A DNA stretch of 64,000 nucleotides from an uncultured delta proteobacterium (lineage in GTDB: Bacteria; Desulfobacterota; Binatia; Binatales; Binataceae). The first letter of the stretch is position 1. Each line of letters opens with the position of its first letter. This document shows, piece after piece, positions 5,040-57,926 of this stretch. The translations under genes were made by a program, and so were the position numbers. The notes under the pieces were generated by a model. That model made no database searches. It saw only the letters and a list, made by a program, of their open reading frames with translations, and was not told the DNA's origin. Where the stretch lies: contig CAVURG010000006.1 in NCBI GenBank assembly GCA_963743865.1, forward strand, positions 163,188-227,187. Direction: 5' to 3'.

Positions 5040-5447
5040 CTACCGGAGACCGACTTTGTGGCGGTGAAGAAGTATCGCCGTGCCCCAGCTGAAAGCGAAA
5101 GCAAAAATGACATAGACAATGTCGAAGATCATCTCGCTCTGCGAAGCTGGCGGTGGATTCCTCGCCGAAAAAAGCACCAGGTTGAGCGTGACGTAGATCG
5201 CATATGCGTAGCCGAGGTACATCGCATAGCGGCGCATCCGCCAGATCCCGGCCGCATAAATCAACAGAACAATTCCCAGCAGAGGCCCAAGGATCGCATC
5301 CGGTGTGCCGCTGAGCCGTTGGCCAAAAAAGACCAGGCCCGTGGTCGGACCCTCGAGATGAAGCGGCTTCAGGATGTCGGTTGATGCGAGAATTGCGAAC
5401 AGGACCGCCAAGGTTGTCAGCATTCCGCCACGCCTGGAATCAGCCAT
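5040..5447 (-). CDS. small integral membrane protein (~4 TM), unknown function
   Basis: GGAGG RBS before ATG 5447; four hydrophobic segments. Confidence 0.65.
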   Translation of the reverse strand: MADSRRGGMLTTLAVLFAILASTDILKPLHLEGPTTGLVFFGQRLSGTPDAILGPLLGIVLLIYAAGIWRMRRYAMYLGYAYAIYVTLNLVLFSARNPPPASQSEMIFDIVYVIFAFAFSWGTAILLHRHKVGLR

Positions 5448-5498
5448 CGCATGATCCTCCGCGGGTATCGATCTAATGGTCAAAAAGGGAAATTCCGG

Positions 5499-5996
5499 TT
5501 AATCTCCCTCGAACTCCCGACCTTTAACGAAGATTGCCGACTGGTCGCCAAAGTAAACTAGCCTCTCTTCCTGCCAGAAGCGGAACTCGTAGCGCAGCAC
5601 AACCCGCTTCGGCCCTTCGCGGGCCTTTGTCTCTTTGGAATGGAGCCGGAGTGGCGGTCCAATGGTTACCAGACTTCGGAAATCAGCACGATGGATGCGG
5701 TTGCCGAACCCGACCCATCCCTCCTCCCAACGACAGCCGTGCAGGAAGTAGGCGTGAAGGCAGCCGAGGTTGCCGGTCAGCAGTACCAGGTCGGGCCCCG
5801 ATACGTGCCGAGGATGGGTGCCGGGATCGCCCACTTGATACCGCGCGACGGGCAGCGGGCGCGTCGTGTCCATACGCGCCTCGATCTCTCGCTGCGCGAG
5901 GTCGACACACAGAACCTCGTCAACCAGGAATGCCTCGCTCGAATATGGAAACGTCGAGACGAAGCGCTCGAGCTCAAGCTTCGAAGGTGTGCTCAC
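5499..5996 (-). CDS. hotdog-fold protein (FabA/FabZ-like dehydratase family)
   Basis: FPYSSEAFLVDEV (cf. FabZ P.RYPFLLVDRV), IHRADFRSLVTIG, LRYEFRFWQEERLVYFG: hotdog topology. Confidence 0.6.
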   Translation of the reverse strand: MSTPSKLELERFVSTFPYSSEAFLVDEVLCVDLAQREIEARMDTTRPLPVARYQVGDPGTHPRHVSGPDLVLLTGNLGCLHAYFLHGCRWEEGWVGFGNRIHRADFRSLVTIGPPLRLHSKETKAREGPKRVVLRYEFRFWQEERLVYFGDQSAIFVKGREFEGD

Positions 5997-6266
5997 GGCA
6001 GCAGATCATTCCAAGCGTGATGAGAAATGACAAGCGGCGGACCAGACGGAACTTCGCGGGGGGGCGCCGTCCTAATTCGGGGATTGCCTCTTTCCCCCGG
6101 TCTTGACCGAATTGGGAGCACGGAAGCGCCGCTTTCAAGGGCTTCGAACTACCTTTACCCGGAATTTCTTTTTTGACTTTGCAAACACCCGATTCGTACT
6201 CGCGCACCCTCCTGTTAAAACCGGTTGGGGTTGGAGCCGGGTCCACTCTTCGAACAGCTGTCCCGC

Positions 6267-29292: not shown

Positions 29293-29336
29293 ATTGAAGA
29301 TTCCGTTGATCCGCTCTTTTGGAAATCGGAGATTGC

Positions 29337-30434
29337 GTGCGAATCCTTTACGCTGAGACGAGCGACTTTCTGCCCACCAGCGCGCACTTTCTGGAAGCGC
29401 TCGCGGCGATGGCGGAGCGCGGCGAATGCGAGTTCACGTTCTTCGATGAAGCCGGGTATCGCCGCCCGCAGCGTTCGATCGCGGGGCGAATCGTGCGGCG
29501 CCTGGCCGGCCACCCGGCCGGTTATCGCGCGCTCAACGCCGCGCTCATAGCCGAGGCGCGGCGCTTGCACCCCGATCTCGTGCTGATCGGCAAGGGCGCC
29601 TATTTCGCTCCCGCCACAATTGCCGCGGTTCGCACCGCGACGGGAGCATCGATGGTCAACTGGGCCACCGACGATCCTTTCAACCCGGCCAACAGCACCC
29701 GCGACCTGCTTGAATCGATCGCACTCTACGACCTCTACGTATGCACCAAGCGCGCGATAATGGACGACGCGCGGCGCGCGGGATGCGCCAACGTCGCCTA
29801 CCTCCGCTTCGGATACAAGCCGCAGGTGCATTTTCCCGAGGCGCCCGCGACCGATGACGAGGCGCGGCGCTTCGAATCCGACGTGACATTTATCGGCGGC
29901 GGGGACGATGACCGCGCTCCATACTTCGAGACGATCGTCCGCGCGATCCCGGAGCTTCGCCTGCATCTGCACGGCGGTTACTGGAATCGCTATCCGAAGC
30001 TGCGCCCATATTGGCGCGGCAGCGCAACCGGGCGCGATTTCCGTCTCGCGGTCGGCGGCGCAAAAATTTCGGTCAATCTGGTGAGGCGCGCGAATCGGGA
30101 CGATCACGTAATGCGCACCTTTGAAATTCCCGCGTGCGGCGGCTTCATGCTCACGGAGAGATCCGCCACCCACGATGAATTATTTTCCGAAGACAAGGAA
30201 GCGGCGTTTTTCAACTCGCCCGATGAACTGGTCGCCAAGGTCCGCAGTTATCTTGGGCGCGATGAAGATAGAGTCAGGATTGCCGCCGCGGGGCATCGCA
30301 AAATCACTCAGGGGCGGCATACCTACGACGATCGGCTGGCGGAAATTATCCAGGCTGCGCGATCGGTGAAAGGATTGCAGAGGCCGGCGACGGTTGGCGC
30401 CGCGCAAACCAATGAGATCGAATCGAATGGCTGA
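29337..30434 (+). CDS. CgeB/DUF3880-type glycosyltransferase (Glyco_trans_1_2)
   Basis: GTG start after GGAG; VNWATDDP; AKISVN; HVMRTFEIPACGGFML; HTYDDR. Confidence 0.85.
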   Translation: MRILYAETSDFLPTSAHFLEALAAMAERGECEFTFFDEAGYRRPQRSIAGRIVRRLAGHPAGYRALNAALIAEARRLHPDLVLIGKGAYFAPATIAAVRTATGASMVNWATDDPFNPANSTRDLLESIALYDLYVCTKRAIMDDARRAGCANVAYLRFGYKPQVHFPEAPATDDEARRFESDVTFIGGGDDDRAPYFETIVRAIPELRLHLHGGYWNRYPKLRPYWRGSATGRDFRLAVGGAKISVNLVRRANRDDHVMRTFEIPACGGFMLTERSATHDELFSEDKEAAFFNSPDELVAKVRSYLGRDEDRVRIAAAGHRKITQGRHTYDDRLAEIIQAARSVKGLQRPATVGAAQTNEIESNG

Positions 30435-30435
30435 A
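30418..30435 (+). repeat. 18-bp direct repeat, copy 1 (TCGAATCGAATGGCTGAA)
   Basis: Identical to 31409-31426; contains overlapping ATG start and TGA stop. Confidence 0.9.
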
Positions 30436-31425
30436 GCCTTCAAGCAACCTATGGCGCAATTGTCAGTAGGGAGCGATTGTCCAATCTGCATGAGTCCGCG
30501 AGCGCTTCAACTAGCTCATCGCTTTGAAGAAGACCCATATTATGTCGTGACGTTGTAAGGCATGCTGCGTCGAGACGATCCTGCCTCATCCTACAAGCAG
30601 GCTTTTGAAGGAATTCTATTCCGACTACCACAATACTCGAACCGCCGAAGAGCAAATGCCGCTTCTCATCGGGCGATCCGTTGAATTGCTCGAAGTGTTG
30701 CTAAGTCATCTGCCTCTTGCTCCAGGACGAAAGCCGTTGCGATACATGGAAGTGGGATTCGGCAACGGAGCGAGTCTGCTGGCCGCGGCTCAACTGGGTA
30801 TGGAGGCTGTTGGCTTTGATTTGGATCCGAGCAACGTACGGGAAGTTACCCAACGGGCTCAGTCCAGAGGTCTCAGTGTGCAGCTCCGATGCGGCGATAT
30901 CGGTGAGGCTATCGAGGGAACGGAACCGGTCGACTTCGTCAAGGCTTCGCAGTTGATCGAACACCTCATCGATCCTGTTAGTTTTGTCCGATCAATCTCA
31001 AAGGTAATGACGCCCAGGGGGTATCTTTACCTCGAATGTCCGAACAACAACGCGGCGTTTCTTCGAATCAAGAATCGACTCCGAAAACGATTCGCGCGAA
31101 TGAATTTCTACAATTCCCTCAAGATCGGCAAGCATCTCTGGGGTTTCAGCCAGTCTGGCATGAACCGGCTGTTGCGGCTTTCAGGCTATGAAGTGGTATT
31201 CTGCTCTAGCTATCCGCTTCGCCATCGCTATTTCCAGCCGGAAAATCTCTTTTGGTATCCAAGTGTGCGGTCCGGCGTGGCCGAAGCATTTCGAGTCGGC
31301 AAGCGTTTCCTCTTTTGAAGTCGATGATTCCTGTCTTCGACGGCTTGGCGTCTTTCGCGCTTTCGGAAGGAATAGGACTCGCAACGCTGGCGCGAAAGCA
31401 GGATGAAGTCGAATCGAATGGCTGA
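30427..31425 (+). CDS. class I SAM methyltransferase with N-terminal CxxC..CxxC Zn ribbon; frameshifts at ~30551 and ~31315
   Basis: MAEAF..CPIC + RCKAC joins ORF 30605..31318 (MEVGFGNG, SQLIEHLIDP, LYLECPN) after a 1-bp correction. A second shift continues LKSMIP...QDEVESNG*. Visibly AT-richer than neighbours. Confidence 0.75.
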
Positions 31426-31426
31426 A
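31409..31426 (+). repeat. 18-bp direct repeat, copy 2
   Basis: Identical to 30418-30435. Confidence 0.9.
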
Positions 31427-32948
31427 CAGTTCGAATCCGCGCCGCTGCGTCCGCCGGATGACGAGTGGTATGCGCGAATCACCACGCCGAGGCCGGGGTC
31501 CGCCAGTCTGGGCAAGGCGCTGAAGCTGTTGGCGGCGGTCGCAATCGCGTTGATCGCTCTGAACCTCTACGCTCCCGCTTCGCCGACGATCCTCGAGCGA
31601 GTATTCGCGTCCGCGATACTGGCCTCGCTCGCGCTTCCGGTCTGGCTATGGATGTCAGGCGCGGATCGAACGATTCCGTTCATGCCATTCCTGACGCTGA
31701 TGTTCGCCTATTACTACGCGCTGCCGGTTTTCCTGTTGCACCGATATGCCACCGGACTGTTCAAGCCGCCTGTTGCCGAACATTTCATCACACTCGCGCT
31801 CGGATACTCACTACTCGGTCTCTACTGCATGTTTGCCGGATACTATGGACCGGCGAGATGGCTATTCGCACCGATACTACCGCGATTCAACTTGCAATGG
31901 CGCGACGAGCGAGTAGTGAGGCTGGTCGCGCTGATGCTGGGAGTCGGGGGATTGTTCATGTCCTCCTCGCAGTGCCGCGTTTCTGCCCGAGAGTCTGGCC
32001 CAGATCGGCGTATTCGCGGCTGACTTATCGATGGTTGGAATCTGCACGCTGGTCGCGCTTCAGTTGGCGGGAAGACTGGATCGGATCACATCGGTGTTCG
32101 TCTGGGGGTTTCTGATTCCGGTCAGAATCGCAATCGGCCTGGGCAGCGGCTCGGCCGGGGGCCGTCTGATGGTCGGCGTCGCCGTCGCAATGATTTTCGC
32201 TTCCGTGCGCCGATCGATCCCATGGAAGACGCTGACTGCTGGGCACTATCGTGGCGGTGTTCATCATCCGGCCCGCAGAGGTGCCGTATCGCGCGGCGAC
32301 CTGGGGCGGAAGATTATCGGATGCGGGCGCGATCGAGAAAGCCCGCCTGTACGGAGATATTCTTTACCGCATCACGATCGGCGGGGCGGTGGAGCCGCAA
32401 GTGCTGATCGAATTCGGAAGCCTGCGCCTGGCGCAATTCACAACGTTCGGCGAAGTAATCGCGGACACGCCCGCAATGGTGCCTTTTTGGGGGGGCGAGT
32501 CTTACTATCCGATCCTGTTCAAACCGATTCCGCGCGTCGTCTGGCCGGACAAACCGGAAGAGTTGAGCGGACAAACGTTTGGCCATCGCTACGCCTTGAT
32601 CTCCGCCGGGAACACTGACACTTCGATCAATCTTCCGCAGCTAGTCGAGTTGTATGCGGAACTTCGGACTCACCGGAGTGATCGCGGGGATGTTCATATT
32701 CGGGTTGATCTACCGGCTGCTGATCGAGATGTACGTTCATCCCGGAATGGGGCTCGGCGCTCTGGTTGGCGCCGTTTACGTTTCGTCGAAGTTGCTTGAT
32801 GTCGGCTCCGCCGCCTCGATGGTTTTCGGAGGGATCCCATGGAGCCATCATCTTCATCGCGCTGATTCACCTGTTCATCCAATTCGCAGAGGTTGACGCG
32901 ATGGCGCTGGGGCAGCTTGGCTTCGAAAAAGGAGTCCGCCGTATCTGA
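31418..32948 (+). CDS. Wzy-like polysaccharide polymerase (multi-TM), about 4 frameshifts
   Basis: Fragments 31403..32023, 32031.., 32251..32799, 32654..32896 and 32766..32948 join into a polytopic protein with IPRVVWPDKP and ELYA-NFGLTG motifs typical of Wzy. Confidence 0.68.
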
Positions 32949-33002
32949 TCCAGTCACAATTCAACGCGAATATTACCGGCGCACCGCGTCGCAATATGAC
33001 GA
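32945..33002 (+). repeat. 58-bp direct repeat, copy 1 (copy of the 5' end of the 34472 methyltransferase)
   Basis: CTGATCCAGTCACAATTCAACGCGAATATTACCGGCGCACCGCGTCGCAATATGACGA, identical to 34479-34536. Confidence 0.92.
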
Positions 33003-34419
33003 GCTGCGCCTTGTGCAGCCCGCCGCCTGATCGCGGGCCGGCGATCGTGTTCCGCGCGACGCTGGCGCTAACGCTCGCCAACGCGCTCTGGTTCATCTGG
33101 TCAAACCGGTTCATCCCGATGTCGGACTATCCCGACTGGGTATACCAGGGGTGGATACTTTCGGGCATCCTGCGCGGTGCCGCCCATCCGCTGTATCACT
33201 TCAGATCGTATCCTCCAACGCACGCCGCAGTCACAATAGCCACCGCTCTTCTCGACTACGGCTTCGGTGCAGAGACCTCGGCAAAGCTGGTGTTGTCAAG
33301 CGCGGTCTGCGCATTCGCGATTGGCAGCACCTACCTTCTGAAAGCGTGTGGGGCCTCCGAGCGGCACCCGCTTCTGTATGTGCCGCTGCTGTTCATCTTC
33401 GACACTTGGTTCTTCACCGGCGAGATTGATTATTATCTCGCCTTGACGGGGTTCTTCTTTCTGGCGGGATATCTGCTGCGGCGCGCGGACTCGCCCGGTC
33501 GAATTAACCCGCTGGTCGTGCTCGTGGGTCTTCTGGCGATTTTTGTGGCGCATTTGATCGTCTACCTGGCGTGCGGCGCTGTTTGTATCGCGATAGTTCT
33601 TGCGCATCCAAGCCCGGTCAAGGCGCGCCGACTCCTGCTGCCGGCGCTGGCCTCGGTGCCGATCCTCGCATGGTATGTGCTGGGCCGGGCGACGTCTCAT
33701 GACTTGGGCACTCAGCCGCTTTTGGTGCCCTGGACGGCCCGCCAGCTCGCCAGCAACTTCATCGATGCGTTCTCGCTGTTTCACGCGTTTGCGCCGTGGC
33801 TCAGTCCGCACTCGAAGTTGATGCACCTAGCGGCTATGTGCAACTTGATCAGCGATGGCGGCATCTTTACTCTCTTTTGCGTGTGCGCGGTGATGTGGTT
33901 CAGGGGTACTCGTGATGATGCCGCGCCCCTGCTCGCAGCCCTGTTGTGCCTGATCGGATACGTCGCAGGAGGCTATGCGATCGCCGGTGTGTTCGGCGCG
34001 GAACGCCTGACCTACCCGGCTGCATGGCTGGTCCTTGCATGGCTGGCTGGAAATTGGACTCCCGCGCGAGAGTCTGCCCGCCTCGTAGCCATCTGTGTGA
34101 TTGGCGCCGTGCTAGCTATTCAGTGCGTTTACGTCGATCATGCCGTGGGACAAGTGTGCGACCGCTTGGCCCAAACCTCGCCGATCGCCTCGCGCAAGCG
34201 CCGTCGCGCAAGGACCTCTGTTCGATATACGAGCCTTACTTCCAGCAAAGCTGGGGCGGCCAACACCGTAGCGGCTGGGAGCGCTTCGTTCCGGACCACG
34301 CCAGTGTCATTCGCCTGCCGTATTATCTCTATATAGAGCGGGGAGAGGCGGCCCCTATTTTTGAAGCAGGGATCTTCAATTATTCGGGGCGTGGAGATAA
34401 CAACGACCTGTGCAGGTAG
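32996..34419 (+). CDS. polytopic membrane protein, GT-C-like; one frameshift ~34175
   Basis: About 11 TM segments; PMSDYPDW acidic motif after TM1; soluble C-terminus continues in ORF 33946..34419. Confidence 0.6.
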
Positions 34420-34471: not shown

Positions 34472-35188
34472 ATGACGGCTGATCCAGTCACAATTCAACG
34501 CGAATATTACCGGCGCACCGCGTCGCAATATGACGACCGGCACGTGCACTCGGATGGTGAGCATACGTTCGCGCTGTGGTTCATGGTGTCGATGATCCGT
34601 TACTTGGAGTGCCGCTCAGTGCTGGACATTGGCTCTGGAACCGGGCGCGCGCTGATAATGCTCAAGAAAGAGATGCCCGGGATTCGAATCTGCGGGATAG
34701 AGCCGTCACCTGAACTACGGGCCGCGGCGCAAGCGAAGGGCCTGGCGCCGCATGAGATAGTGGATGGCGACGCGCAGGCGCTCAAATATCCCGACGGTGA
34801 CTTCGACCTGGTGTGCGCCTTCGGCGCATTGCATCACATTCCGAAGCCCTCGCTTGCGGTCGGCGAGATGCTGCGGGTATCCAGGCGAGCGATCTTCATC
34901 TCGGACGCAAACAACTTCGGCCAGGGCTCGACGCCGGCGCGCGCTGTCAAACAGATCGCGAACTTCCTCGGACTATGGCCGTTGCTCGATTTCATCAAGT
35001 CGCGGGGTAAGGGCTATCGCCTCTCGGAAGGGGACGGTCTTTCATACTCCTATTCTGTATTCAACGATTACGCGCAGGTCCTGCGCGCCTGCGCGTCCGT
35101 CCATCTATTGAACACGACGGCAGCGGGCGTGAATCCGTATCGGACCGCATCGCATGTCGCGCTGCTCGGCATCAAATCAGGATCGTAA
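34472..35188 (+). CDS. class I SAM methyltransferase
   Basis: SVLDIGSGTG, GIEPS, DGDAQALKYPDGDFDLVCAFGALHHI. Confidence 0.88.
   Translation: MTADPVTIQREYYRRTASQYDDRHVHSDGEHTFALWFMVSMIRYLECRSVLDIGSGTGRALIMLKKEMPGIRICGIEPSPELRAAAQAKGLAPHEIVDGDAQALKYPDGDFDLVCAFGALHHIPKPSLAVGEMLRVSRRAIFISDANNFGQGSTPARAVKQIANFLGLWPLLDFIKSRGKGYRLSEGDGLSYSYSVFNDYAQVLRACASVHLLNTTAAGVNPYRTASHVALLGIKSGS
34479..34536 (+). repeat. 58-bp direct repeat, copy 2
   Basis: Identical to 32945-33002. Confidence 0.92.
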
Positions 35189-49112: not shown

Positions 49113-50199
49113 TCAGTCGAACATCAGCACCGTGCGCGCGACTTCTCCGGCCTTCATCGCGCGGAACGCCTCGTTGACGTCCTCGAGTTTGCCGCGGCGC
49201 GTGATCATGTCGTCGAGGTCGAGCCGCCCTTGCTGATAGAACTCGATGATGCGCGGCATGTCGATGCGGAAGCGGTTCGATCCCATGAAGCATCCCTGGA
49301 TGCGCTTCTCGAACAGGAACGAGAAACCGTCCACTTCGACTTTCTGCCCGAGCGGCACCATCCCGACAATCGTGGCGACGCCGCCAACGCCGATCGATTC
49401 ATAAGCCTGCTCGGCTGCCGTCTTGAGTCCGATCGCTTCGAACGAGTAATCGACGCCGCCGCCGGTGAGCGAGCGAATCTGGCTGACCGCATCGCCCTTT
49501 GACGCATCGACGGCGTGAGTCGCGCCGAGCTTTTTGGCCAGTTCGAGCTTGGCGGGGAACTTGTCCACCGCGATGATCATTCGCGCGCCCGCGATTCGCG
49601 CACCCTGGATGATCGCGAGGCCGACTCCGCCCGCGCCGAACACGGCGACGGTCGATCCCGGCGCGACTTTCGCGGTGTTAAGCGCGGCGCCGACACCGGT
49701 CATCACGCCGCATCCGATCAGCGCGGCGCGATCGAAGCGGCACATCGTTGGGAATCTTCACCAGTGCATTTTCGTGCACCAGCATCTTTTCGGCGTATCC
49801 CGACAGGTCGGCGAACTGACTGACCGGCTTGCCGTTCTGCGAGAGGCGCGGCGGGTCGCTGGCGGCGCGCTGGGTGGCCTCCTTGTTAGAGCAGAGGTTC
49901 GGACGGCCGGACATGCATTCCTCGCAGTAGCCGCAAAAGACCGACAGGCAGGCGATCACGTGGTCACCGGGCGTGAGGTACGAGACCTGCGAGCCGACTT
50001 TCTCGACGACGCCGGCGGCCTCGTGGCCGAGGATCGCGGGCGTCGCCCAAAAGTACAGCCCGTCCACGAAATGAAGATCGCTATGGCATACGCCGCTGGC
50101 GACCGTGCGCACGACGACCTCGCGCGCTTTGGGTTCGTCGATATCGACCTGCTCGATCGTGAGTGGCTGACCGGGACCGTGGAAGACAGCAGCTTTCAT
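49113..50199 (-). CDS. Zn-dependent alcohol dehydrogenase (class III-like MDR); frameshift ~49737
   Basis: GVCHSD, ILGHEAAG, CGYCEEC..GRPNLC; after a 1-bp correction DRAALIGCGVMTG, VAVFGAGGVG. Confidence 0.88.
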
Positions 50200-50230
50200 C
50201 TGGATTGCTCCTCTTTTCAGTGAATCCGCT

Positions 50231-51340
50231 CTAGTTGAACATCAACACAGTGCGCGCGACCTCGCCGGCCTTCATGGCGCGGAACGCCTCGTTGACGTCC
50301 TCGAGCTTGCCGCGGCGGCTGATCATGTCGTCGAGATTGAGGCGGCCCTGCATGTAGAAGTCGATGTAACGGGGCATGTCGATGCGGAATCGGTTCGAGC
50401 CCATGTTGGAGCCTTGCAGCTTGCGCTCGGTCAGAAACATGTAGCCGTCGATTTCGACCTTCTGGCCGACGGGAATCATGCCGATCACGGTCGCAGTGCC
50501 GCCGGCCTTGAGCGAGTTGAACGCCTGCTCGGCGGCCTTCTTGAGTCCGATCGCTTCAAACGAGTAGTCAACGCCGCCGCCGGTCATTTTTCGGATTTCA
50601 TCGACGGGATCGCTGTTCGACGCGTCAACGGTGTCGGTCGCTCCCATCCGCCTGGCCATCGCGAGCTTGCCCTCGAACATATCGACCGCGATTATTTTGC
50701 GCGCGCCCGCGATCCGCGCGCCCTGGATCGCGGCGAGTCCGACGCCGCCCGCGCCGAAGACCGCGACCGTCGAGCCGGCTTCGATCTTCGCGGTATTGAG
50801 CACCGCGCCGACGCCGGTGGTGACGCCGCATCCGATCAACGCCGCGCGATCCAGCGGCAGGTCCTCGCGAATCTTCACCACCGCATTCTCATGCAGCAGC
50901 ATCTTCTCGCAGTAAGACGAGATGTCCAGGAACTGAAAGACCGGCTTGCCCTTCTGCGAGATGCGCGGCTTGTCCTGGGGGTTGCGCTGGGTGGCGACCT
51001 TGTTCGTGCATCGATTCGGATGGCCCGACATGCATTGCTCGCAGTTGCCGCAGAACACCGACAGGCAGCAGATCACGTGATCGCCGGGCTTGACGTAGGT
51101 TACCTGTTTGCCGACTTCTTCGATGATTCCGGCGGCCTCGTGGCCGAGCACCGCGGGCGCAGGGTACGGGTATAAGCCGTCAACGAAATGCAGATCGCTG
51201 TGGCATACGCCGCTGGCGACGGTTTTGATCAGGACTTCGCGGTCTGCGGTTGTCGAGACTTCGCGGTCCTGCGGTTTGTCGAGTTCGACGTCCTCGATGC
51301 TGAGCGGCAAATTGGGCCCGTGGAAAACGGCGGCTTTCAT
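50231..51340 (-). CDS. Zn-dependent alcohol dehydrogenase (tandem paralog)
   Basis: GVCHSD, VLGHEAAG, CGNCEQC..GHPNRC, LIGCGVTTG, FGAGGVG; C-terminus identical to the neighbour (KLEDVNEAFRAMKAGEVARTVLMF). Confidence 0.92.
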   Translation of the reverse strand: MKAAVFHGPNLPLSIEDVELDKPQDREVSTTADREVLIKTVASGVCHSDLHFVDGLYPYPAPAVLGHEAAGIIEEVGKQVTYVKPGDHVICCLSVFCGNCEQCMSGHPNRCTNKVATQRNPQDKPRISQKGKPVFQFLDISSYCEKMLLHENAVVKIREDLPLDRAALIGCGVTTGVGAVLNTAKIEAGSTVAVFGAGGVGLAAIQGARIAGARKIIAVDMFEGKLAMARRMGATDTVDASNSDPVDEIRKMTGGGVDYSFEAIGLKKAAEQAFNSLKAGGTATVIGMIPVGQKVEIDGYMFLTERKLQGSNMGSNRFRIDMPRYIDFYMQGRLNLDDMISRRGKLEDVNEAFRAMKAGEVARTVLMFN

Positions 51341-51497: not shown

Positions 51498-53084
51498 CTA
51501 CGGAAACATAGCCGGCCGGGCTGTGCCCGGGAACGGAACACCCTTGAGCCGGGCGGCAGCTGAGTTCGCGCGCGCGTACAGCCGGGCCGTGTCGTCGCTA
51601 TAGATGAGCCGCCAATCCTCGCGCGAGTCCATCAGGTTGCGTGCCCCAATGTCCGGCGCAATCAGCACGTAGTCGGTCGGATATTTGGTCAACGCCGCAT
51701 CGGCGCCCGCCTGGTTGTAGGTGAACACGAAAAACTTCTTCAGCACGTCTTGCGGATAGACCGTGTCGTAGCGCCCGTCCATGAATACTTTCGAGTCCGG
51801 CCCCAAGCGCCAAATCAGGTACTCGCCCCATGAAAACAGCCCAAGCACGTTGCCCTTGAGATCGTGATCCTTCATGAATGCGCAGGCACTGACGGGATAC
51901 GGATCGAAGGACGTGAGCCGATTCGAGAAGAGACCGCTGGACCACAGGATTGCCAGCGCGAGCATCGCAAGTATCGCCTGGTTAAGCCGCGGCGAGGGCC
52001 GCGCCGCTCGAGGATCGTCGCAAATCGCAGGCCATCGGCGCTCGAGCGCTCGCGGCAGATGACGCGCGAGTGGCGCGATAATCGCGATCACCGCAACCGG
52101 TATGTTGCGCACCGAAATGAACGCCGCCGCGGACATCACGGCTGCTATCGCGATCAGCGGGAGATCGTTCTTCGATGGGCTCAAGATGAACGAAACGGCC
52201 AGCGCCGCCATCGGGACAATCCCGAGCACCAGGTAGGTCGGGCCGACCGCCTGGGAATGCCAACTCGCGACGATTGCTTTCAAAAGCGGCTGCCAATCGA
52301 CCATTACGATCCGCGTGTACGGATTGAACAACGCATGAAGTACCGCACGCCATGCGCCGAATCCGTATGGGTTCACCAGCGTCGCGAGTATCGATAACGC
52401 CGTAATCGCACCGAGCCGAATTGCACGTGCGATGCCGCGGTGATCGACGACATCCTGCACGCCGGACACCGCGCTATAGATGGCGAGCGTCGCGATTCCG
52501 AGGATGAATCCGCCGTGCAGATTGGCCCACACTGCAAGCATCGGAACCGCCAGCCATAGCGGCGAGGCGCGGCGGCCATAAACCTCGCGCGTGAGCATAT
52601 GGATGAGCGCGCTCAGCAGGACGAAGCTGAAGAGCTGCGGCCGGAATTGCACATACGGCGCGATCGCCAGGGCAGAAACCAGCAGGATTGCGAACTGGAT
52701 CAGTGGCGGTGCGCCGGTCTCGCTTTCCGAAGCGGCGAGAAAGACAACGATCAGGGCCGCACACCCAAGTTTCATCAGCTTGAGGCCGAAGACGCCCAGA
52801 TGATTGTAGAGCGTCCCCATTATCAACTCGCTTGACCATTCGTGATTGAGCCACAGATGGCCCGGTGCGGAATATGAATACGGATCGCGCCACACGATGT
52901 GTCCCGCGCTGAGCACGGCCTGCCCGAAGCGGACGTGACCCCACAGATCCGGGTCGGCGAGGCGGTTCAAGTCGGCGATGGCAATCGCGACCAGGATCAG
53001 CGCCGGGGAGTAGCGAAACAGCGACGCGACGGCGGACCGTGCGGGCTGCGACGATTCGGAAGTAAGGGAGGATTCAGGCGTCAC
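51498..53084 (-). CDS. polytopic membrane protein, GT-C-like family, paralog 1
   Basis: GTG start after GGAG. ADPDLWGH, WLNHEW, RPQLF, WANLHGGF, DWQP, FMDGRYD..YP. Confidence 0.7.
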   Translation of the reverse strand: MTPESSLTSESSQPARSAVASLFRYSPALILVAIAIADLNRLADPDLWGHVRFGQAVLSAGHIVWRDPYSYSAPGHLWLNHEWSSELIMGTLYNHLGVFGLKLMKLGCAALIVVFLAASESETGAPPLIQFAILLVSALAIAPYVQFRPQLFSFVLLSALIHMLTREVYGRRASPLWLAVPMLAVWANLHGGFILGIATLAIYSAVSGVQDVVDHRGIARAIRLGAITALSILATLVNPYGFGAWRAVLHALFNPYTRIVMVDWQPLLKAIVASWHSQAVGPTYLVLGIVPMAALAVSFILSPSKNDLPLIAIAAVMSAAAFISVRNIPVAVIAIIAPLARHLPRALERRWPAICDDPRAARPSPRLNQAILAMLALAILWSSGLFSNRLTSFDPYPVSACAFMKDHDLKGNVLGLFSWGEYLIWRLGPDSKVFMDGRYDTVYPQDVLKKFFVFTYNQAGADAALTKYPTDYVLIAPDIGARNLMDSREDWRLIYSDDTARLYARANSAAARLKGVPFPGTARPAMFP

Positions 53085-53104
53085 GATGGCTCCGGCGTCA
53101 GGCC

Positions 53105-54667
53105 TCAAGGAAATTGCCGGTGATGGTGCGGTCCCGACTCGGAAACTGCGGGAATATTCGCGGCGTCGGATCCCTTGCGCGCGTACAGCACGGCGACCGG
53201 ATCTGAGTAGATGAGCCGCCAATCGTGCTCGGAAGCCATCAGCTTCGCGCTCGGCGAATCTCTCACAGCCAGGACGAAATCATGCGGATACGCCGCCAGC
53301 ATATGCGATCCGCCGGCCATGTTGTTGGCGAACTCAAGGTAGTCCTGAACCACTGCGGGAGGATAGGCCAGGTCATAACGGCTGTCGATGAAGACTTTAG
53401 TGCCTGGCGCGCCATGCCAAATGACGTACTGACCCCATGCGTAGTCAGCCAGCACGTTTCCGGTGAGCCGATGGCTGTTCATGAAGTTGACCGCATCAAC
53501 AGGATTGTCGGATGCGTCTATGCCGGGCGACAGAATTCCGCTGTACCGCGCGAGCCCGATGGCGGCGACCGCGACCAGGATATCAACGACCAACCGGCCC
53601 GCACGCGGCATCGTACGAGCGCTCGAAGCCGGCGCGGCGGTGGCCTCGCGCGGCCGGACGAGCAAGCCCAGGTGGTTCGCAAACACAGGAGCGATCGCAA
53701 TCGCCGCAATCGGGATGTTGCGGACGGCCGCGAAGGCTGCCGCGAGCATTACGGCGGCGACCGCGACCAGCGGCGCGTCCGCAGCTTTCGGTGTGAGAAC
53801 AACCGATACGGCGGCGGCGGCAAAAAAGAAAAGCACCAGGACGAAATACTTCTTATCGACGCTCCCGCTGTGCGCGGCCGTCAGAGCAGCTATCAGCGGT
53901 TTCCAATCCAAAATCGCGTAATGCGTCATCGGGTTCAGGATCGAGCGGATCAGCGTGTACCAAGTGTCGCGCGCGGGCGGGATTAGAAACGTGCACAAAG
54001 TAGATGCGGCCGCGGCGGCGGCAATTGCAACAATGCCAAGCCCGCGGCGCGGACCGTGGCCCGCAAGGATGTCAGACAGGAGAGCAGTTGCTCCATACAC
54101 GCCGATCGCGACGAGGCCTATAAAAAATCCGCCGTGGAGATTGCTCCAAATCGCGACGATCGGGATCGCAATCCAGAGCCTCGCGGAACCGCGCCAGTTG
54201 TGACGGGCGAGTAGCGCGATAATCGCTGACAGCGCGACGAAATCGAAAAGCTGCGGCCGAAACTGCATCACCGGCGCCAGGATCAGCGCCACGACCAACA
54301 GGATTGCCGACTGCACGAATGCTGGCGCCGCGGATTCGGACTCAGCGAGAACAATAAGGCAGATAGTGCCGGCCGTGCACGTGAACTTGAGCAGCTTGAG
54401 GCCGAACGGGCCGAACTTGTCGAACATCGCGGCCATCAGGACTTCGCTCAACCATTCATGACGCAGCCACGGGTAGCCCGGCGCCGAATACGAATAGGGA
54501 TTGCCGTGCGGCAACGAGCCATGAGCAAGGAGCTCGCGGCCCCACAGAACGTGTCCCCACAGATCGGGGTCGCTGAGCTGGCGGGCGTCCGCAATCACGA
54601 TCGCGAACAGGATCAGCGCCGGGGAGTAGCGCCACAGCGAGACGCGAGCGGGATTGGCGTCCACCAT
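53105..54667 (-). CDS. polytopic membrane protein, GT-C-like family, paralog 2
   Basis: SDPDLWGH, WLRHEW, RPQLF, WSNLHGGF, DWKP, FIDSRYD..YP. Confidence 0.7.
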   Translation of the reverse strand: MVDANPARVSLWRYSPALILFAIVIADARQLSDPDLWGHVLWGRELLAHGSLPHGNPYSYSAPGYPWLRHEWLSEVLMAAMFDKFGPFGLKLLKFTCTAGTICLIVLAESESAAPAFVQSAILLVVALILAPVMQFRPQLFDFVALSAIIALLARHNWRGSARLWIAIPIVAIWSNLHGGFFIGLVAIGVYGATALLSDILAGHGPRRGLGIVAIAAAAAASTLCTFLIPPARDTWYTLIRSILNPMTHYAILDWKPLIAALTAAHSGSVDKKYFVLVLFFFAAAAVSVVLTPKAADAPLVAVAAVMLAAAFAAVRNIPIAAIAIAPVFANHLGLLVRPREATAAPASSARTMPRAGRLVVDILVAVAAIGLARYSGILSPGIDASDNPVDAVNFMNSHRLTGNVLADYAWGQYVIWHGAPGTKVFIDSRYDLAYPPAVVQDYLEFANNMAGGSHMLAAYPHDFVLAVRDSPSAKLMASEHDWRLIYSDPVAVLYARKGSDAANIPAVSESGPHHHRQFP

Positions 54668-54676
54668 GGTATCCCG

Positions 54677-56296
54677 TTATACACGCGCGCCGGGGCAGAT
54701 CGTATCGCTGCCGAGACGCGCCTCGCGGACTACGGGAAACATCGCCGGCCCGGCTGTACCCTTGAACGGAACGCCCTCAAGCCGGGCGGCAGGTGAGTTC
54801 GCGCGCGCGTACAGCACGGCGACCGGATCTGAGTAAATGAGCCGCCAATCGCGCTGAGACTCCATCAGCTTCGCGCCCGGTGAATCTCTCTGGACCAACA
54901 CGAAATCATGCGGATATGCCGCCAGCATATGCGATCCGCCGGCCATGTTGTTGGCGAGCTCAAGGTAGTCGCGGATCACCGCGGCGGGATAGCCCTCGTC
55001 GTAGCGGCTGTCGATGAAGACTTTAGTGCCTGGCGCGCCATGCCAAATGACGTACTGGCCCCATTCAAAGGTAGTCAGCACGTTTCCCGTGAGCCGGTGG
55101 CTGTTCATGAAGTTTATGGCGTCGGCGGGATTGTCGGTTGCATCTATGCCGGGCGACAGAATTCCGCTGTACCGCGCGAGCCCGATGGCGGCGACCGCGA
55201 CGAGGATTTCAATGACCAACCGGCCCGCACGGGGCATCGCACGAGCGCTCGCAGCGGGTGCGGCGGTGGTGACCTCGCGCGGCCGCACGAGCAAGCCCAG
55301 GTGGTTCGCAAACACAGGAGCGATCGCAATCGCCGCAATCGGGATGTTGCGGACGGCCGCGAAGGCTGCCGCGAGCATTACGGCGGCGACCGCGACCAGC
55401 GGCGCGTCTGCACCTTTCGGTGTGAGAACGACCGATACGGCGGTGGCGGCAAAAAAGAAAAACACCAAGACGAAATACTTCTTCGCGATGCTCCCGCTAT
55501 CCGCGGTGGTCAGAGCAGCTATCAGCGGTCTCCAATCCGCAATCTGCTTGCGCGTCATCGGGTTCAGGAGCGCGCTGATCAGGAAGGACCAGCTGTCGCG
55601 CGCGGGCGGGATTAGAAACGTGCACAAAGTAGATGCGGCAGCGGCGGCGGCAATCGCTACCACGCCCAGCCCGCGACGTGGACTGCGGCCCGCAAGGATG
55701 TCGGACAGGAGGGTAGTTGCTCCATACACGCCCATCGCAACGAAGCCTATAAAAAATCCACCGTGAAAATTGCTCCAAACCGCTACGATCGGGATCGCAA
55801 TCCATAGCGGCGCCGAACCGCGCCAGTTGTGACGGGCAAGCAGCGCGATAATCGCCGACAGCGCGACGAAATCGAAAAGCTGCGGCCGAAACTGCATCCA
55901 GAGCGCCAGGGTCATCGCCACCAGCAGCAGGATTGCCGCCTGCACGAACGCTGGCGCCGCGGTTTCGGACTCAGCGAGAACAATAAACCAGATAGTGCCG
56001 GCCGCGCAGGTGAACTTGAGCAGCTTCAAGCCGAACGGGCCGAACTTGTCGAACATCGCGGCCATCAGGACTTCGCTCAACCATTCATGACGCAGCCACG
56101 GGTAGCCCGGTGCCGAATACGAATGAGGATTGACGCGCGGCAGCGAGCCATGAGTGAGAAGCTCGCGGCCCCAGAGGACGTGTCCCCAGAGATCGGCACC
56201 GGTGTGCTGGAGTGCGTCTGCGATCACAATCGCGAGCAGGATCAGTGCCGGGGAGTAGCGCAGCAGCGAGACGCGAGCGGGACTGGCGGCCACCAT
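54677..56296 (-). CDS. polytopic membrane protein, GT-C-like family, paralog 3 (true stop probably 54730-54732)
   Basis: GADLWGH, WLRHEW, RPQLF, WSNFHGGF, DWRP, FIDSRYD. TTTCCCGTAG versus paralog 1 TTTCCGTAG suggests that one extra C extends the ORF. Confidence 0.7.
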   Translation of the reverse strand: MVAASPARVSLLRYSPALILLAIVIADALQHTGADLWGHVLWGRELLTHGSLPRVNPHSYSAPGYPWLRHEWLSEVLMAAMFDKFGPFGLKLLKFTCAAGTIWFIVLAESETAAPAFVQAAILLLVAMTLALWMQFRPQLFDFVALSAIIALLARHNWRGSAPLWIAIPIVAVWSNFHGGFFIGFVAMGVYGATTLLSDILAGRSPRRGLGVVAIAAAAAASTLCTFLIPPARDSWSFLISALLNPMTRKQIADWRPLIAALTTADSGSIAKKYFVLVFFFFAATAVSVVLTPKGADAPLVAVAAVMLAAAFAAVRNIPIAAIAIAPVFANHLGLLVRPREVTTAAPAASARAMPRAGRLVIEILVAVAAIGLARYSGILSPGIDATDNPADAINFMNSHRLTGNVLTTFEWGQYVIWHGAPGTKVFIDSRYDEGYPAAVIRDYLELANNMAGGSHMLAAYPHDFVLVQRDSPGAKLMESQRDWRLIYSDPVAVLYARANSPAARLEGVPFKGTAGPAMFPVVREARLGSDTICPGARV

Positions 56297-56444
56297 GGTA
56301 TCGGGCTAGGCGCGTGCGCCGGAGCAGATCGTCTCGTTGCTGAGCCGCACGACGCCGCCGGCTGCCGCATATTCCCGCGCGGACCGGCCTTCTGCCGGCT
56401 TTTCATTTTTCAAATCGTCGGGATTCTGAAGGCTCATCGCAATT

Positions 56445-57926
56445 TCACCTTCGCAGAACCGTTACGCCGCGCAGCCGCATGACCACATCCGGATATTCCT
56501 TTCTATATGACCGGGCGGCATCCGGCGCGAGGTTCTGACGCCCAAGAATCAACACGGCAGGCGCTGATGCTGACTCGCCGTAGCGAACCGCGCGATCGAG
56601 TTGATCGGCGGGGAGATAATATCGGACGACTTCGATCGCATACGCCGGGACAACGGTCATGACCTCGCCGGGTTTGAGCGCGGAGGAGGCGGCCGCAATT
56701 GCTTCGCGATACTGAGCGTCGTGCGGCTTGCGATCGTACGAAACGATATGGCCGGCGGAGAATGCGACTGCGAGCGCAAGCGCGCCGATGCGGACGAGAT
56801 CGCCGGGCAGCTCGAATATCCCCAGCGCGACGAGGATGAAAAACGGAACGAAGCACGACAGCGCGTAACGCTCGACGAACACCGGCGCGATCGTGTATGA
56901 CGCGGCAACCATCGCCACCGGCGGCGCCCACATCCAGAGGAGCGCGAAGCCGACGGCGTCGTGCGCGCCGCGGCGCCATCCGCGGACCGCACCCCAAATC
57001 GCAAGCGCCGCGAGGATCGGGAACGCGAAGCTGCCGGTTGCTTTATTGAATAGCGCGAAGGGCGCGTATAATGCCGGCGGCCTGCGCCATCCGCCGACGC
57101 TCCCGGCCGAGGCCGCGCGCAGAGACGAAAAAAGCTTCGGTACGAGAATCAATCCTGCCGCCGCGAGCGCAATCGCGATCGCCCACCCGCGCCGCGCCTT
57201 CGCATCATCCGGGCGCCATCCCGCGCGCGCGACTACATTCAGCAGCCACAAGCCTTCGGTCGCCGGCACCAGCAATGCGGCGAAGTTCGAGGCGATCGCA
57301 ATTGCCGTCAGAACCACGACCGCCGCGTAATTCGCGAGACCGCCGACGCGAAGCGCACGGAGGAACATCGCTACTTGCGCGAGAACCGCCGCGAGCATCA
57401 GCGGATACATCCGCGCCTCGCGCGAGTACTTGATCGTGACGAGGTTCACGGCAAAGACCAGTGCGCCAAGGCCGGCAATTATCCTGACGTCGTCGCCGGT
57501 CAGCGCCGATTCTCTTTCAGACCCGGGCGCGAACAGTTCGCAGCTGACAAGATAAACCAGCAGTATCGCGACGACGCCGAAGGCCGCCGACATCGCGCGC
57601 ATCGCGACCAGGCTCGATCCGAAAATCGCGATCCATCCATGCAGCATCAAGTCATGTATCGGCAGCTCGCCGGGATTGAGCGCTGGCTGGCGCGCGATCA
57701 CTTCGGCGGCGGTCGGCGCGGAGGCGGCGGCCCATGATGCGCCCTCGTCCGCCGACATCTCGAGCGCGCCGAGATTGTAAAAGCGCAGCGCACCGCCGGC
57801 GGCGAGAGCGACGATGAGCAGGATGAGACTTAGCGCACGGGCCGAAACGATCGGGCGGGGCGTCGTTTGAGCGTGCGGATGATCGCGTGGTTGATCGCGC
57901 TCGCCGGCTTTGGAAGCGGCCGTCAG
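56445..57926 (-). CDS. ArnT/PMT-family (GT39/GT83-like) glycosyltransferase
   Basis: LRFYNLG..EMSADEG, YSREARMYPL, RALSA-like AMRAMSAAFG, ERYALSC. The frame is open back to a CTG at 57926 overlapping the HU stop. Confidence 0.78.
   Translation of the reverse strand: MTAASKAGERDQPRDHPHAQTTPRPIVSARALSLILLIVALAAGGALRFYNLGALEMSADEGASWAAASAPTAAEVIARQPALNPGELPIHDLMLHGWIAIFGSSLVAMRAMSAAFGVVAILLVYLVSCELFAPGSERESALTGDDVRIIAGLGALVFAVNLVTIKYSREARMYPLMLAAVLAQVAMFLRALRVGGLANYAAVVVLTAIAIASNFAALLVPATEGLWLLNVVARAGWRPDDAKARRGWAIAIALAAAGLILVPKLFSSLRAASAGSVGGWRRPPALYAPFALFNKATGSFAFPILAALAIWGAVRGWRRGAHDAVGFALLWMWAPPVAMVAASYTIAPVFVERYALSCFVPFFILVALGIFELPGDLVRIGALALAVAFSAGHIVSYDRKPHDAQYREAIAAASSALKPGEVMTVVPAYAIEVVRYYLPADQLDRAVRYGESASAPAVLILGRQNLAPDAARSYRKEYPDVVMRLRGVTVLRR

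Follow-up and report, generated by a model that had tools for sequence, protein, structure and literature searches.

In the polysaccharide operon of an uncultured Binataceae bacterium, a foreign gene for a class I S-adenosylmethionine (SAM)-dependent methyltransferase (MT) lies exactly at the overlapping stop and start codons of two neighbouring genes, a CgeB-like glycosyltransferase (gene D) and a Wzy-like membrane protein (gene F), and is bracketed by a direct repeat of that junction. The operon is contained in a 64,000-nucleotide stretch of DNA (GenBank assembly GCA_963743865.1, contig CAVURG010000006.1, positions 163,188 to 227,187 of the forward strand), which we refer to as the window and whose numbering is used throughout. 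In most related genomes the junction is single and empty, and in others it holds different genes. We consider it likely that an illegitimate insertion at the junction was followed by homologous exchange, the overlap of the two genes having forced the duplication. Genomes are given G numbers below (the present one is G000) and loci L numbers; G008 is a 95%-identical relative. The features of the locus are:

29319..30434, plus strand: gene D, CgeB-like glycosyltransferase, 371 aa (Pfam Glyco_trans_1_2, E=1.6e-31), stop TGA at 30432-30434.
30412..30435, plus strand: 24-nt junction copy 1, comprising the exact 18-mer (30418-30435), the gene D stop and an ATG at 30427.
30436..30450, plus strand: 15-nt leader between the junction and the native MT start, read in the frame of the junction ATG in this genome (MAEAFKQP-M...) and interrupted by a stop in G008.
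30451..31425, plus strand: class I SAM-dependent MT, 324 aa when intact, as judged from Pfam, the intact G008 orthologue and a family alignment.
31403..31426, plus strand: 24-nt junction copy 2, comprising the exact 18-mer (31409-31426), the MT stop at 31423-31425 and the wzy-like start at 31418.
31418..32948, plus strand: gene F, encoding a polytopic Wzy-like membrane protein (508 aa in G008), in three frames here.

The exact 18-mer TCGAATCGAATGGCTGAA occurs at 30418-30435 and 31409-31426, with no third copy in the whole 3.67-Mb assembly (one 3.57-Mb contig and ten small contigs; estimated completeness 82.6%) and none at other loci in the genus. Shuffled windows contain on average 0.13 matches to it, even with three mismatches tolerated. 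A preliminary description of this DNA had reported the two 18-bp copies; our repeat search finds them and lengthens the pair to 24 nt (ATGAGATCGAATCGAATGGCTGAA versus ATGAAGTCGAATCGAATGGCTGAA, 22/24 identical at a spacing of 991, and 23/24 in a relative). Within the junction the upstream gene reads GAA TCG AAT GGC TGA and the next frame reads ATG GCT GAA; the stop of gene D sits downstream of the start of gene F, 5 nt past it (overlap ATGGCTGA). Both upstream proteins end in ESNG, as had been described, gene D in ...NEIESNG at the TGA of copy 1 and the MT in ...DEVESNG at the TGA of copy 2. The companion claim that both downstream proteins begin with MAE holds for the wzy-like gene, whose ATG lies in copy 2, and fails for the MT: its native start is the internal ATG at 30451 (MAQLS...), which is shared by all 18 aligned family members, and in G008 the junction ATG opens just a 6-codon mini-ORF (open reading frame; MAEALK, then a TAA within the 8-codon leader). 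A single ORF, adjoining the genes on both sides, is all that the 973 bp between the two copies contain.

Among 46 further species genomes of this genus (Binataceae metagenome-assembled genomes, MAGs), 24 carry the D-F locus, and gene D orthologues were likewise located in 24 species genomes. About 17 of the 24 have a single-copy D/F junction:

Empty, single motif, the BLAST match to D sharing 17-18 nt with that to F (40-41 nt in two genomes): G003, G005, G007, G011, G013, G015, G020, G022, G023, G041, G049, G052, G053, G055, G057.
Empty, motif with 2 mismatches: G046, G056.

The empty state is also found in more than ten metagenome contigs. The empty junction that had been predicted thus exists, and deleting one copy together with the 973 bp recreates the single-motif D/F join seen in these relatives, in support of a precise one-gene insertion at a seamless glycosyltransferase/wzy-like junction. 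Among genomes, only G000 and G008 carry the MT; in metagenomes it is present on Logan contigs of SRR2029816/7, which are the same data as G008, and on contig VFSW01015758.1. All MT-bearing loci have a period of 991 and two exact 18-mer copies, so that the gene-bearing relatives carry the repeats as well. An assembly join, which the preliminary description had raised as a possibility, can be ruled out, since three data sets independent of one another show the same architecture: this MAG, G008 together with the Logan contigs, and VFSW01015758.1. In trees of D and of F, the MT carriers all fall in one subclade and every cassette-bearing locus sampled falls in one shallow clade; G058, found later, is absent from these trees, and its identities (66% for D, 72% for F) are at the levels of the distant group. 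When identical D and F proteins were sought in other samples as a sign of filled/empty polymorphism, only the same data set was returned.

The MT contains a Rossmann-fold SAM-binding domain, with five Pfam models above their cut-offs (Methyltransf_23, 11, 31, 25 and 12; Methyltransf_23 scores 54.5 bits against a cut-off of 27 and Methyltransf_11 52.3 bits against 21.2). An E-x-G-F-G-N-G motif is invariant across the family alignment, and the N-terminus carries a Cys4 zinc-ribbon-like motif (CPxC...CxxC in the family). A conserved segment at the family C-terminus, YPLLKSLI..FD..GIGLAALARK, may be a membrane-association helix. Homologues are rare: we found only 22 among 5.8 billion proteins, an uncharacterised family known entirely from metagenomes. 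The enzyme most probably methylates the repeat unit of the polysaccharide and would so alter the surface polymer.

Several lines of evidence mark the MT gene as foreign. The insert has a GC content of 52.6-52.8%, compared with 62.0% for the window, and in the intact G008 orthologue the GC content at third codon positions is 57%, compared with 70-82% in neighbouring genes; the gene is indeed AT-richer, as first described. The closest homologue (78% identity; locus L023) is a stand-alone gene without the junction motif, and DNA homology with it runs from the ATG at 30451 to near 31401; the 15-nt leader is absent upstream of it. Natively, members of the family end in ..GIGLAxLARK plus 0-8 residues, and homology stops near 31401, so the last ~8 codons of the present MT (..DEVESNG and stop) derive from the duplicated junction. 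A longer duplication, suggested by the MT tail ATLARKQ and the D tail ATVGAAQT, was dropped, since ..GIGLAxLARK is native to the family and ~24 nt are duplicated. A search of genome contigs for related loci with the MT as query gave no match, and none of 30 genomes of the genus has the MT at any other locus. Foreign composition, a stand-alone homologue free of the motif, and empty sites together identify the MT as a foreign insertion at a pre-existing junction.

In the present assembly the MT is read in frame 1 (30427-30558), frame 2 (to 31318) and again frame 1 (to 31425). Comparison with G008 shows one surplus A at 30550 and one T lacking at 31289; the ORF is intact in both G008 and L081. 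The frame of gene F is split by four 1-nt insertions (31972, 32234, 32657 and 32843). In a control comparison of 162 kb of G008 with this genome we counted 126 isolated indels whose length is not a multiple of three (98 extra bases, 28 missing), corresponding to 0.78 per kb across the genome and 0.81 per kb in the local region. Since the two rates are nearly the same, the frameshifts in the MT and the wzy-like gene are most likely assembly errors, and we dropped a decaying or pseudogene locus (two MT and four wzy frameshifts) as an explanation, the insertion-biased indel rate being the same everywhere in the control. Further indels occur across the window, for example at 33019, 34180 and 35632; many window ORFs are artificially split in this way, and pseudogene calls there need read support. 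Gene F is termed Wzy-like by resemblance only, given that its family matches lie below cut-off (O-ag_pol_Wzy, 15.1 bits against 26.6, E=0.009; XrtY_assoc_Wzy, 36.7 bits against 420, E=1.9e-9).

The D/F junction is a hot spot, for which we distinguish at least nine states:

MT: G000, G008 and L081; 24-nt duplication.
X, a 505-aa PMT_2 GT-C protein: G002; 42-nt duplication (38/42).
V1, a 479-aa membrane protein: G048; 90-nt duplication (78/90).
Y, a 447-aa membrane protein: L084, L080, L082 and L040; truncates the D tail.
Tandem of Y and Z: L080; duplication of about 50 nt around Z.
W: G059/L087; insertion point behind wzy codon 7, second junction copy missing.
Second methyltransferase, unrelated, 245 aa: G054; ATG inside the D tail (overlap ATGAGTGA), no junction copy remains.
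Radical-SAM gene: G058; Pfam 61.4 bits, in the D/F place.
Empty: G005; clean single junction.

In the four loci with Y, the 3' end of the MT gene is kept in front of the junction (26/29, 27/30, 20/22 and 19/22 identities in L084, L080, L082 and L040, respectively). This scar lies at the same junction offset in the Y cassettes, and the score for L084 is reached by 0/300 shuffles; Y has therefore replaced an earlier MT. Gene W (80-86% aa identity) is found at the D/F junction in G059 (L128 2115-3650) and at the next junction downstream, between genes F and H, in G048 (L127 about 5280-6000, reverse-complemented), which indicates that cassettes move between operon junctions. In both genomes, W is still preceded by some 45 nt of its original upstream sequence. 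In L084 a divergent D (72% aa identity) is joined to an 88%-identical wzy head, an indirect hint at exchange in the flanks. As a weak signal, the right-hand copy in G002 differs at 2/42 positions from an allele of the G000 type and at 4/42 from the D tail of its own locus. Fresh overlapping stop/start pairs have been rebuilt after each insertion in G054 and G058; in G054, wzy restarts via a GTGA overlap.

We compared nine single-copy junctions, using homology and not the motif to locate them. Five contain the 18-mer unchanged and four differ from it at one position, even though identity to the window is just 71-92% in the flanks; no other 18-nt segment within +-150 nt is as well conserved (0.98, compared with a mean of 0.85). 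As the junction is conserved across the genus, the identity of the two copies is no proof of a recent insertion or of recombinational activity, and we infer that the copies stay identical mainly through strong purifying selection on the junction rather than because it is a recombining attachment site. Folds of 71-nt junction contexts, calculated with RNA parameters, gave z scores against shuffles of +1.67, -0.09, +0.69 and +1.66. The contexts are no more structured than their shuffles, which is more in keeping with an open translation-initiation region than with a folded site for recombination.

These observations are best accommodated by the following sequence of events. A single-copy overlapping stop/start junction would be the starting state, as in most of the genus, at which a foreign, low-GC MT gene would have been inserted exactly by an illegitimate, non-site-specific event that duplicated 24 nt. 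Copy 1 would now end the glycosyltransferase and open a short leader into the MT, and copy 2 would end the MT and start wzy. The insert may then have spread, and been replaced, through homologous recombination in the flanking genes and further illegitimate insertions, so that the junction would have turned into a hot spot, occupied by many different single genes. The geometry of the junction calls for the duplication: because the D stop lies beyond the F start, any insertion that keeps both genes whole and F coupled must duplicate the overlap, and for wzy initiation to be kept some sequence upstream of the overlap must be duplicated too. The differing boundaries, the duplications of 0-90 nt, the scars and the fused frames point to serial illegitimate insertion and replacement with homologous exchange rather than to a dedicated recombinase.

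Some points weigh against this scenario. No Ku was found in this 82.6%-complete genome, which makes classical end-joining capture unlikely, and Ku-dependent end joining was dropped as the source of the 24-90-nt target duplications. The MT and X cassettes have similar leaders of 15-16 nt (10/15 identical at a fixed offset) followed by ATGGCG, which could hint at a common cassette end; the likeness is not significant in free local alignment (90/300 shuffles are as good). Conservation of the 18-mer at synonymous sites is ascribed to translation initiation or coupling by assumption, and the evidence consists of assembled sequences. A Campbell-type single crossover of a circle bearing one junction copy would give the same anatomy, a route to which we assign a small probability.

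Such a crossover is part of the alternative that comes closest, an active form of the reversible cassette first proposed: the junction would act as an attachment site, and promoterless circles of one gene (991 bp for the MT) would integrate and excise by a Campbell-type crossover, with catalysis supplied either by a recombinase whose gene lies outside the locus or by the host's own recombination acting on the 18-24-nt repeat. We regard this as unlikely. It accords with the junction direct repeats that flank the MT, X, V1 and Z cassettes, with the tandem arrangement in L080, where junction copies lie between two cassettes, with the occurrence of W at two junctions (D/F in G059, F/H in G048), with the clean empty junction of G005, which is nested in a clade otherwise filled with cassettes or MT scars, and with a junction conserved beyond coding needs. 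However, the boundaries do not behave like those of a site: the repeat ranges from 0 to 90 nt, insertion points lie tens of nt apart between cassettes, some occupants (G054, G058) abolish the junction entirely, replacements leave scars, unlike site-specific exchange, and neither the motif nor the MT occurs at any other locus. The machinery is likewise missing from the vicinity, as the window encodes no tyrosine recombinase and the cassette no second ORF. Phage_integrase (PF00589) has four matches in the genome and none within the window (C6:163188-227187); the nearest, C6:89279-89791, lies 74 kb upstream of the window start. The junction has neither an inverted repeat nor a stable fold, both hallmarks of an integron attC, and with no integrase in the window we dropped an integron-like site. 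Nor do we see the hallmarks of a transposon or insertion sequence: duplications are 24, 42, about 50 or 90 nt long or absent, the insert encodes the MT only, and by inspection its ends, GCCTTCAAGC... and ...GCAGGATGAAG, do not form inverted repeats. A broader version, in which the junction would be a docking site for promoterless single-gene circles that integrate and excise, integron-like inside an operon and served by trans-acting or host recombination, letting the co-translated polysaccharide operon exchange its modifying enzymes with translational coupling preserved, seems to us quite improbable.

Alternatively, the MT with both repeats could be ancestral and the empty junctions the products of repeated precise deletion between the copies, that is, of loss rather than gain. 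Direct repeats 991 bp apart are able to delete precisely, the MT scars in the Y cassettes suggest that the MT was once wider within the variable clade, and the clean empty site of G005 may plausibly be a secondary precise loss between repeats. But the deep lineages of the genus are all single-copy except G058, such that an ancestral MT would need many independent precise losses; its composition is foreign and unameliorated, its closest homologue stands alone without the motif, and its ..EVESNG tail has been acquired from the target in a family that natively ends in ..LARK. We therefore consider general loss very unlikely. An artefactual repeat, whether produced by joining or collapse during assembly of an error-prone long-read MAG or reflecting a chance likeness of two coupling junctions, has practically no chance of being the explanation, for although the assembly is indel-prone, the period-991 architecture is also present in G008 with its Logan contigs and in VFSW01015758.1, and the 24-nt extension, the empty sites and the scars all need true homology.

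One gene downstream, the F/H junction is a second hot spot that follows the same duplication logic. An inserted membrane-protein gene (gene G) is bracketed there by an exact 58-nt duplication:

32945..33002, plus strand: first 58-nt copy, corresponding to the 5' end of methyltransferase gene H; it overlaps the stop codon of the wzy-like gene, and the ATG of gene G (32996) comes from it.
34479..34536, plus strand: second 58-nt copy, within methyltransferase gene H (34472-35188), where it spans codons 3-22.

Relatives without gene G have the ancestral F/H overlap ATGCCTGA, and this ancestral junction shares the ATGNCTGA overlap with the D/F junction. All four 58-nt copies of G000 and G008 are identical, though the two genomes differ by about 4.7% nearby. 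In G005 (L013 7880-8800) the head of gene H persists as a short ORF (MPDPVTIQREYYRRTASRYEDE, followed by a stop), and a different class I methyltransferase replaces H. Upstream of gene D, distant relatives (L019, L020, L014 and others) have a GT4 gene B that overlaps D by 23 nt, and the variable clade has a 314-aa gene C of unknown function between B and D (L011 2860-3960), with no detectable duplication. Elsewhere in the window, our repeat search located tandem paralogous genes at 49115-51152 (period about 1118 nt, 72-84% identity) and at 51502-57900 (period about 1616-1629 nt, 72-92% identity).

The D/F junction can be compared with several known systems. Minimal mobile elements (MMEs) of Neisseria are described as alternative cassettes between conserved flanking genes that have no mobility functions and are presumed to spread when their flanks recombine homologously (Saunders & Snyder 2002, as cited in PMC1797815). 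As in MMEs so described, alternative whole-gene occupants without mobility genes of their own lie between conserved flanks. In contrast to that account, the site is not intergenic but an 8-nt stop/start overlap in a co-translated operon, and insertions bring junction duplications of 24-90 nt and fuse to the neighbouring frames. Exchange by transformation also belongs to the MME concept; in this Binataceae genome a ComEC-like gene is all that we have seen in this respect. Type VI secretion system (T6SS) effector-immunity modules and the orphan arrays of Rhs and contact-dependent inhibition (CDI) loci are displaced sequentially by homology-facilitated illegitimate recombination, leaving 3' remnants, short duplicated conserved segments and scarred arrays with no integrase (PMC5361080). 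The MT 3' scar in the Y cassettes and the Y and Z tandem resemble such displacement, and in both cases the mechanism is a reconstruction; here, in contrast, the cargo consists of polysaccharide-modifying enzymes and the anchor is a gene junction, not the constant 5' part of one gene. Like integron cassettes, the inserts are single-ORF units in series at one site that depend on upstream expression signals, promoterless here by their ORF layout; unlike them, they have no IntI, attI/attC or folded single-stranded site, and their boundaries vary. O-antigen and capsule loci contain serotype-modifying accessory methyl- and acetyltransferases and GT-C side-branch transferases. The class I methyltransferase and GT-C-like genes resemble these in being variably present in a Wzy-dependent-type cluster, although, unlike such serotype-modifying genes, the Binataceae locus is known from its sequence alone and the 22-member MT family is uncharacterised.

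Taken together, the D/F junction provides a clean, well-sampled case of an overlapping-gene operon that accepts new genes. What is new is the site, an overlapping co-translated junction with long, variable junction duplications; the case extends hot-spot and illegitimate-recombination models and reveals no new machinery. If circles or mixed filled and empty sites were to occur, the junction would point to a new kind of cassette exchange. The junction duplication signature (repeats of 24-90 nt, fused leaders and tails, nested scars) allows the order of events to be read, and it records rapid diversification of the surface polysaccharide in the Binataceae, an uncultured lineage of soil and peat.

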